A stretch of 13,028 bases of DNA from the IMG/VR virus record IMGVR_UViG_2693429621_000007. One strand, written 5' to 3'. Positions 12,001 to 13,028 of this stretch are shown in pieces. Made by a program: the position numbers. The first letter of the stretch is position 1. Each line of letters starts with the position of its first letter. This stretch comes from a virus (Duplodnaviria; Heunggongvirae; Uroviricota; Caudoviricetes).

Positions 12001-13028
12001 CTGGGTGAAGGATACGGAAGCAGAAAAACTGTTCCGGATCCGGGAGGCGGAAGAAACAAAAAACAGCCTGATGCAGGTAGCCAGTGAGCATATAGCGCCG
12101 CTTCAGGATGCTGTGGATCTGGAGATCGCAACGGAGAAAGAAACCTTGTTGCTGGAAGCTTGGAAAAAGTATCGGGTGTTGCTGAACCGTGTTGATACAT
12201 CAACTGCACCGGATATTGAATGGCCAGTAGCACCTATAGGGTAAATTCGTAATGATTACCTAAATACGTTATTCTTTTGTTAAAAAAGTGATTTTGCTAT
12301 AGGTAGGGAGTATGTTCTTGGATTAAGAATAAAAAATCGCCATGAAAGAGCTTCATGGCGAGTACATAAACGTACAAAATGTGATGAAAGTAGAGTGGCG
12401 TAAGCCACTATATTAAGATATGACAATAGCGAAGAAAAGTAAATAACATTTTATGGACGTTTAATTGTTAATTATAAAAACTAGAGTGCCCGATATTGTT
12501 TATCTTGCTTTAAAATAATGTACTCAAACCAAATTTTTGAGCTAAAAGCTCAAATAATATAAATGCAATAATAATGTTTAATAAGACAATTAGCTTGCTT
12601 TGTATTTTCATTTCGGAATACTGTTAAGTAACTTTGATGACCCTAACAATAGATCGGAATTTTCTTAGAGTCAATGGTCACTGTTTTTGCTTGCAAAGCA
12701 AATGTTTTGGTGGTTATAAGTCGTCTTAATATAGTCACGCATGCAACTTGTTCCATGCGGAGATTAAAGATTGGAATATAACGCGAAGATGGAATTAAAT
12801 TACATTTGCAATAATTAATTTATTATTACTCAATAATTACCGATATTATTATTGTAAATTAATCATTAGAATGCAAAAAGAAATGTAACGGCAAAATAAG
12901 AGGACGATAGCTGAGAAAAAAGCGTGCTTTCCCAATCTGGGGCAAATCACGTCTGAATGACACCTGAAAACAGGTGGTAGCCTCAAGAAGGCTGGTGATG
13001 CTGCCAACTTACTGATTTAGTGTATGAT

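Follow-up and report, generated by a model that had tools for sequence, protein, structure and literature searches.

The subject of this report is an AT-rich island at positions 12245-12993 of the window, i.e. the stretch of 13,028 nt from the IMG/VR virus record IMGVR_UViG_2693429621_000007 (Caudoviricetes) that was analysed here. The island lies between the tail fibre assembly gene tfa of a lambdoid prophage and an insertion element IS1. Its larger part, 12245-12822, is probably a moron, a self-contained cassette of phage cargo read leftward against the late operon, which encodes a micro-protein of 33 amino acids resembling the Escherichia coli stress protein YncL and whose transcript ends at an intrinsic terminator. 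A first-pass annotation of the sequence had described this terminator as an orphan and the island as one non-coding unit. As explanations it had proposed a non-coding or small RNA that is read leftward and has its 3' end here, the decayed remnant of a phage accessory region, or the regulatory sequence of a gene displaced by IS1. The remaining 12823-12993 comprises a linker and a fragment of another prophage-end module, truncated by IS1.

The earlier statement that the island contains no credible open reading frame (ORF) is contradicted by a 33-codon ORF on the minus strand, 12611 to 12510 (MKIQSKLIVLLNIIIAFILFELLAQKFGLSTLF), which is conserved as a coding sequence and whose predicted product is a YncL-like small membrane protein with a single helix. 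The reading frame is closed by a stop five codons before the ATG at 12611, which leaves this ATG as the sole start. In an allele with 78% identity to the window (L007) start, stop and length are unchanged, and the two ORFs differ by 18 nucleotides, 11 of them at third codon positions, and by 5 amino acids, with 28 of the 33 residues kept. According to the method of Nei and Gojobori these are 11 synonymous and 7 non-synonymous differences, with a ratio of the non-synonymous to the synonymous proportion (pN/pS) of 0.16; comparison with L009, a 91% identical allele, yields 4 synonymous and 1 non-synonymous difference and a pN/pS of 0.06. Random placement of the same 18 substitutions gave 5 or fewer amino acid changes in 4e-5 of the trials. 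The five other frames are riddled with stops in every allele. Among 113 locus entries from genomes, viral contigs and metagenomes (including, in some cases, the same contig fetched twice) 112 carry the intact ORF, in four protein variants.

It was considered that the island might be neutral AT-rich spacer or decayed accessory DNA, in which ORF and hairpins persist through recent copies moving together with tfa. Most copies of the cassette are indeed more than 95% identical and confined to E. coli prophages, two of the palindromes described initially decay in diverged alleles, inactivating mutations occur occasionally, and the cassette is annotated nowhere. We nevertheless regard this explanation as very unlikely, since the flanks of the 78% identical allele have diverged by 35-41%, yet the start, stop, length and most residues of the ORF are kept, as are 79 of 85 nt in a block at the 3' end of the unit; the similarity to YncL, moreover, is not compositional. 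Decay as proposed in the first-pass annotation does not apply to 12245-12822, which is under purifying selection and occurs in the viable phages mEp332, PhiR70_1 and ev099, but is a fair description of 12823-12993, this being a piece of another prophage end cut by IS1.

YncL (NF000537) was the sole match in NCBIfam for the three alleles tested, with E-values of 1.3e-5, 3.7e-5 and 7.5e-5. BLASTP aligns the product with K-12 YncL (MNVSSRTVVLINFFAAVGLFTLISMRFGWFI) without gaps from Met1, with 11 of 28 positions identical (39%) and 18 of 28 similar. The local alignment score against YncL is 60, whereas 40000 composition-preserving shuffles scored 20±4 with a maximum of 47, none of them reaching 60; the observed value thus lies about 10 standard deviations above composition-matched shuffles. 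Other small membrane proteins and type I toxins gave local scores of 20-31. The phage product is, like YncL, a predicted single hydrophobic helix; the two proteins have 33 and 31 amino acids (YncL: K-12 b4598), respectively, and share M1, S5, V9, L10, N12, A16, L19, F20, L22, F27 and G28 as well as basic residues at positions 6 and 26. AlphaFold predicts one helix for the phage product, spanning residues 2-26 (predicted local distance difference test score of 86), and its grand average of hydropathicity is 1.51.

The two genes differ in their surroundings and in their non-coding parts. K-12 yncL is located between patD and ortT, whereas the phage gene is found in prophages after tfa and has no DNA similarity to the yncL locus; it also lacks a Shine-Dalgarno sequence, possesses a conserved 3' untranslated region (UTR) of 150 nt and ends at a different terminator. 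YncL is described as a small inner-membrane protein induced by minimal medium and heat shock; its production depolarises the membrane to a sublethal degree, condenses the nucleoid and renders cells sensitive to pore-forming peptides (PMC12542507). The yncL mRNA is reported to be a target of the small RNAs KilS (PMC8175672) and RprA (bioRxiv 10.1101/2025.09.11.675593).

No match for the ORF was found in Pfam or PHROGs, and tblastn of the 33-residue protein against phages also gave no match, missing the known copies as well. Of 15 billion catalogued sequences only two correspond to the protein, both without a name, and no relevant literature was found on either the peptide or phage mEp332. The island contains further small ORFs, of 48 residues at 12280-12426 (-), 37 residues at 12643-12756 (-), 52 and 34 residues at 12849-13007 (-), 35 residues at 12674-12781 (+) and 9 codons at 12790-12819 (+), which were rejected as candidates: none has a family match, and starts or frames are lost in L005 or L007. 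The ORF of 37 residues is annotated in PhiR70_1.

Upstream of the gene a sigma70-like promoter is predicted from the consensus only at 12674 to 12646 on the minus strand (TTGACT-17 nt-TATTGT, start near 12639); it is 85% identical in L007, with an invariant -35 element. The predicted 5' UTR of about 28 nt occupies 12612-12640 on the same strand and is 76% identical in L007. A leaderless start or an alternative promoter just before the ATG was also considered and rejected, as no convincing -10 or -35 element could be recognized by eye.

The hairpin had been described correctly as to its structure and orientation: the arms 12337-12346 and 12352-12361 (TCGCCATGAA/TTCATGGCGA) form a perfect 10-bp stem with a loop of 5 nt, and TTTTTTATTC follows the stem on the minus strand only. 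On that strand it constitutes an intrinsic terminator (12361 to 12328) with the stem 12361-12352/12346-12337, the loop 12351-12347 and a U-rich tail at 12336-12328 (UUUUUUAUU). The terminator is 91% identical in L007, with substitutions in the loop (12351), in the last stem pair (12337) and in the tail. The sole other terminator-like site of the minus strand is a palindrome within the ORF which is not conserved; the hairpin 12361-12337 is therefore the first real terminator, its stem starting 149 nt after the stop codon of the ORF, in disagreement with the earlier claim that no minus-strand ORF ends nearby. The unit and the late operon converge; transcripts reading through from tfa in the lytic cycle would be antisense to the unit.

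The base composition reported for the island was confirmed, with a GC content of 0.297 in every 300-nt interval of 12301-12900 versus approximately 0.46-0.65 elsewhere; the value for the cassette is 0.30, as compared to 0.46-0.55 in tfa and stf. Perfect hairpins are overrepresented relative to 1000 dinucleotide shuffles: 13 with a stem of at least 6 bp were observed versus 2.5±2.0 (P=0.001), and one with a stem of at least 10 bp versus 0.02 (P=0.015). The three palindromes noted previously are present at 12536-12554 (8 bp, loop 3), 12686-12702 (7 bp, loop 3) and 12961-12976 (6 bp, loop 4). The first, rejected as an RNA or operator element, lies within codons 20-26 of the ORF (F-E-L-L-A-Q-K) and is disrupted both in L007 and, by a change of GCT to GAT, in L009; the second lies a short distance upstream of the -35 element and has decayed in L005, an allele of about 96% identity, and in L007; the third is conserved, but as part of the separate prophage-end module. 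Of the four structures named in the first-pass annotation, the terminator alone is supported as functional, as is a further hairpin at 12391-12412 that had been overlooked. Two other candidates were discarded, namely the hairpin 12738-12759, whose stem is weakened by changes in L005 without compensation, and the inverted repeat I1 (12394-12418 with 12724-12748), which is not co-conserved.

Between the stop codon and the terminator, 12463 to 12362 on the minus strand forms a conserved, structured part of the 3' UTR. The 141-nt 3' segment of the transcript contains, in this order, a closing stem (12463-12446 with 12382-12367), hairpin 2 with the core 12409-12404/12399-12394, the unpaired stretch CUCUACUUUCAUCAYAUUUUG and the terminator; the folding z-scores of this segment against shuffles are -6.5, -4.95 and -5.2 for three alleles. 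Identity to L007 is uneven along the unit. From the tfa stop to the terminator (12245-12327) it is 65%; over 12328-12412, comprising the terminator, the inter-hairpin stretch and hairpin 2, it is 91-97% (93% overall); it falls to 82% over 12413-12445 and 59% over 12446-12509 and amounts to 82% in the ORF. The block 12328-12412 has thus 6 differences in 85 nt while its flanks differ at 37% of positions (P=1e-10), and the differences are also fewer than predicted from the rate of the ORF itself (P=0.004). It is the best conserved part of the island, far beyond flanks and synonymous sites. The pair 12447-12381 appears as G-C, G.U and A-U across the alleles. Two transitions in hairpin 2, C to U at 12404 and A to G at 12396, lead to G.U pairs in the minus-strand RNA and would be A.C mismatches on the plus strand; the remaining changes of the block are in loops or at stem ends.

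These features could point to an independent small RNA (sRNA) of the Hfq or ProQ type, approximately 100-140 nt in length (roughly 12465 to 12328) and transcribed from its own promoter, with the ORF being incidental or a separate unit. The 3' block is better conserved than the ORF, the predicted fold is strong, a hairpin, a U-rich single strand and a terminator with U-tail follow one another, and a TATAAT/TACAAT element is present at 12476 to 12471. That element, however, is not accompanied by a -35 element, and the TACAAT of L007 is itself drawn into the closing stem. Weak cmscan alignments with MicC, Aar and Esr41 over the terminator region score 22.8, 19.6 and 15.6 bits versus thresholds of 90, 60 and 102, and are driven by the terminator; no Rfam family reached its gathering score in the island when the window and an intact locus (L004) were searched at a permissive E-value. 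As the ORF shows its own selection at the protein level and has no other terminator, we consider an independent sRNA rather unlikely. Both readings are nonetheless compatible, since a 3'-UTR-derived sRNA could be cut from the mRNA, and the 3' UTR could serve as the source of such an sRNA or as a cis-regulatory element. In common with the Hfq-dependent sRNAs of this class, e.g. CpxQ and KilS (from the 3' UTR of Rac kilR), it has a conserved terminal hairpin with U-tail at the mRNA end, a conserved single-stranded stretch before the hairpin and a part that is more conserved than the coding region; it differs from them in having no Rfam match. The initial proposal of a leftward non-coding or small RNA was therefore correct in direction and 3' end, given that the terminator and the 85-nt block are the most conserved and that pairing is kept on the minus strand only, but not in its purely non-coding form: the RNA is most likely the mRNA of the 33-residue protein, from which a 3'-UTR-derived sRNA is possible.

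In the RNAalifold consensus of the whole mRNA, which is weak with only 4 sequences, the start region (12624-12605) pairs with the 3' UTR (12438-12423), including one compensatory change from A-U to G-C. This invites comparison with type I toxin-antitoxin loci, in which case the 33-residue product would be a hydrophobic membrane toxin whose translation is blocked by folding of the mRNA and by an antisense RNA; the latter could simply be read-through of the convergent late operon. The peptide is small, hydrophobic and related to a membrane-depolarising protein, the start region without Shine-Dalgarno sequence is paired in the consensus fold, the UTR is long and structured, and the K-12 yncL mRNA is itself an sRNA target, as cited above for KilS and RprA. 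TisB, ZorO, ShoB and HokB, and likewise the toxic small membrane protein YohP, are short hydrophobic single-helix peptides too, and long structured UTRs and a start region possibly sequestered by pairing are found in type I systems as well as here, but there is no sequence similarity and no antitoxin RNA gene was found for the cassette. Of the promoter-like sites on the plus strand only one faces the ORF (12420-12449, 9 of 12 matches); it is not followed by a terminator-like site, the two such sites being on the minus strand, and promoter-like sites in the region are no commoner than in shuffles. No conserved repeat was found that would make the 5' UTR complementary to upstream DNA, the 11-nt core of I1 being lost in L007, where the long-range helix is also partly broken; YncL, finally, is not described as the toxin of a toxin-antitoxin pair. 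A toxin-antitoxin-like locus appears quite unlikely on these grounds.

Comparison with 5426 complete E. coli genomes by BLAST, as suggested in the first-pass annotation, found some part of 12245-12993 in 1343 genomes and the whole island, defined as coverage of at least 80%, in 280; many more match only 12245-12822 (query positions 1-578). The island is accordingly not one unit but a mosaic of the cassette 12245-12822, the linker 12823-12908 and the module 12909-12993. The cassette moves as a unit, and homology among differing genomic contexts stops at 12822. A 361-nt core is present in 828 of the 5426 genomes, with up to 4 copies per genome, and also occurs in four sequenced phages; no annotated feature lies beneath the cassette among the matches listed. 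It is always located 3' of tfa or of a tfa remnant. Near-identical loci occupy the lambda attachment site, adjoining ybhB and bioA, and are also found in the three sequenced temperate phages named above; copies at the Qin site follow tfaQ and adjoin ydfJ, with about 96% identity (L005 type); L009 adjoins sitABCD; L007 and L010, both 78% identical, belong to a Rac/sit-type site. At this map position the ends of other lambdoid prophages hold different cargo. Species-representative genomes and plasmids delivered no matches, and in viral and metagenome contigs no lineages were found besides the three or four known ones.

Within the cassette, the upstream part 12675-12822, which holds the palindrome 12686-12702, has no conserved ORF on either strand. 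Its block 12726-12822 occurs as two haplotypes, one shared by the window and L004, the other by L005 and L007, whereas L005 hardly differs from the window over the remaining cassette, so that a recombination breakpoint is placed near 12700-12725. The very AT-rich linker is restricted to loci of the lambda attachment site type. The module 12909-12993 represents the first 85 nt of a prophage-end module that is cut by IS1 in the window and continues in intact loci into a tRNA-Ser-like 3' fragment; the right ends of other lambdoid prophages have it too, for example in an O26 strain, where it follows nleG-like genes at the Rac site, and in another strain close to zinT.

Several observations weigh against the moron interpretation. 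All known copies belong to three or four independent lineages, all of them E. coli prophages, and the tests of selection and covariation hence rest on few events. With three alleles the YncL model scored 25.0, 23.5 and 22.5 bits versus a naming cut-off of 35 and 68.6 for K-12 YncL; since the match is significant (about 1e-5) yet below naming level, the protein is filed as a YncL-like paralogue, not as YncL. The start codon of one metagenome copy (L096, at the site homologous to window 12609) is changed from ATG to ATA, with the rest of ORF and UTR intact, and one catalogued variant is frameshifted and 43 amino acids long (P0018). A search of 1.84 billion representative proteins returned the ORF product itself and the frameshift variant only. 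Formal covariation among the four sequences is not significant, and the shuffle control was uninformative (269/500). The high conservation of the 3' block could in principle reflect a recombination patch, as several of its variants are common to L009 and L007. What chiefly weakens the coding reading is the missing Shine-Dalgarno sequence before the ATG, since K-12 yncL has AAAGGTGG upstream.

If the cassette is a moron as proposed, host RNA polymerase would start in the lysogen at the sigma70-like promoter and stop at the intrinsic terminator, producing an mRNA of about 310 nt; the supposed orphan terminator would therefore belong to the 33-codon gene. The product would be a single-helix inner-membrane protein, a distant paralogue of YncL, and by analogy it would insert into the inner membrane, where its production would reduce the membrane potential or alter the stress physiology of the lysogen. 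The folded block in the 3' UTR of about 150 nt may stabilise or regulate the mRNA, pair with the start region or be released as an sRNA. Morons at the end of the late operon are familiar from lambdoid phages, e.g. lom and bor of lambda, the concept being that of Juhala and Hendrix. Like these, the cassette stands beside tail fibre genes as an autonomous unit, with an intrinsic terminator and a predicted promoter of its own, its base composition is unlike that of its neighbours, it is present or absent among related prophages, and it moves between prophage types; it differs in the small size of its unannotated product, in being read against the late operon and in its unusually conserved 3' UTR.

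A more far-reaching, though unlikely, possibility is a dual-function locus, in which translation of a depolarising YncL-like micro-protein is gated by pairing between start region and 3' UTR and an sRNA acting on host mRNAs is produced in addition, with a role in lysogen dormancy, superinfection exclusion or abortive infection.

The extension of the island to IS1 was confirmed. The left inverted repeat of the element occupies 12994-13028 on the plus strand (terminal repeat GGTGATGCTGCCAACTTACTGAT), and a 149-nt query across the junction is recovered over its full length with 100% identity in the matches listed; at least 80% of it is covered in 79 genomes. One of the loci with a junction match of 100% (L008) has an IS1A element with transposase annotated at the same place. 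In the window variant the 768-bp IS1 replaced 550 bp of the intact locus (L004 5750-6299). The sequence beyond 13028, as seen in related loci, contains a gene for an AraC-family regulator of 247 amino acids, whose best NCBIfam match is YdeO with 149 bits versus a cut-off of 348. In L008 (5115-6832) the right end of IS1 is located 206 bp upstream of this YdeO-like gene, in the same orientation as the regulator, and the insertion could affect its expression.

A gene past IS1 is thus real, and the island might be read as its long upstream control region, split off by the insertion. In intact loci at the lambda attachment site no annotated feature separates tfa from the AraC gene, which follows at a distance of 1.5 kb, and AT-rich upstream DNA is generally typical of horizontally acquired regulators. 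The cassette, however, is far commoner without the regulator gene: in addition to the 280 genomes that cover at least 80% of the island, many more match 12245-12822 only, and the Qin-site and Rac/sit-site prophages examined have no AraC gene, so that the cassette is not its control region. In intact loci, furthermore, the cassette is separated from the regulator by the other prophage-end module and a tRNA-like remnant of an attachment site, the latter followed by about 380 bp and then the regulator gene. This last of the explanations proposed initially is extremely improbable.

The tRNA-like remnant was localized in the segment deleted from the window variant (L004 5860-5920). It is a tRNA-Ser-like 3' fragment composed of variable arm, T-arm and the 3' strand of the acceptor; no complete tRNA is present. 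The fragment is probably the mark of an old attachment-site junction, which would suggest that the AraC segment was acquired from beside a tRNA-Ser integration site. The att-proximal module (window 12909-12993; L091 3501-3715; L092 3501-4035) is common to lambdoid prophages at different integration sites, and the cargo before it is unrelated: one prophage has nleG-like DUF1076 genes there, another a diguanylate cyclase. A small ORF just before the module is called "capsid protein" in RefSeq and looks misannotated.

The left neighbour of the island, tfa, extends from 11663 to 12244 on the plus strand (Pfam Caudo_TAP, E-value 4.6e-44), closes the rightward late operon and carries the annotation "tail fiber assembly protein" in related loci. 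At the Qin and Rac/sit sites (L005 5333-5421, L007 4542-4646) the cassette is followed by a second fragment of a tfa 3' end, about 100 nt in length and in direct orientation, which is 76-77% identical to window 12134-12245; the bracketing of the cassette by tfa 3' ends is a hint of the route of acquisition. Wholly within the tfa coding sequence and outside the island, Rfam IS009 (RF02111) matches 12006-12204 (+) over its full length, with 218 bits versus a gathering score of 117; this "RNA family" may merely represent conserved 3' ends of tfa or tfa pseudogene fragments.

The remainder of the window represents the tail end of a lambdoid prophage, with the C-terminal part of J, lom, stf and tfa. 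At 19-8481 this tail end is duplicated around an element of the IS21 family: the C-terminal part of J (19-2877), lom (2945-3544) and an N-terminal fragment of stf (3566-3934) are followed by istA (4021-5193) and istB (from 5190), whose ORF call continues into a second C-terminal J fragment ending at 7928, and by a truncated lom of 160 amino acids (7999-8481). A complete copy of the side tail fibre gene stf follows at 8574-11663. The arrangement looks like two prophage tail regions joined at an IS21 insertion.

Morons beside tail fibre genes and overlooked micro-ORFs are already familiar, and genes with fewer than 40 codons are routinely missed by annotation. A phage-borne, widespread and unannotated YncL paralogue with a 3' UTR more conserved than its coding sequence appears to be undescribed. 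Without any annotation, the cassette is carried by several viable lambdoid phages and by roughly every seventh complete E. coli genome. With 33 codons and a UTR of 150 nt it is small enough to serve as a test case for stronger conservation in a 3' UTR than in the coding part, and AT-rich DNA after tail fibre genes should not be labelled junk or an RNA gene until micro-ORFs have been looked for. Should the dual-function reading be true, the locus would represent a new family of toxic small proteins that are carried by phages and controlled by RNA elements of their own. The cassette links the chromosomal stress micro-protein YncL to a mobile phage paralogue and suggests that micro-proteins are traded as cargo of lysogenic conversion.

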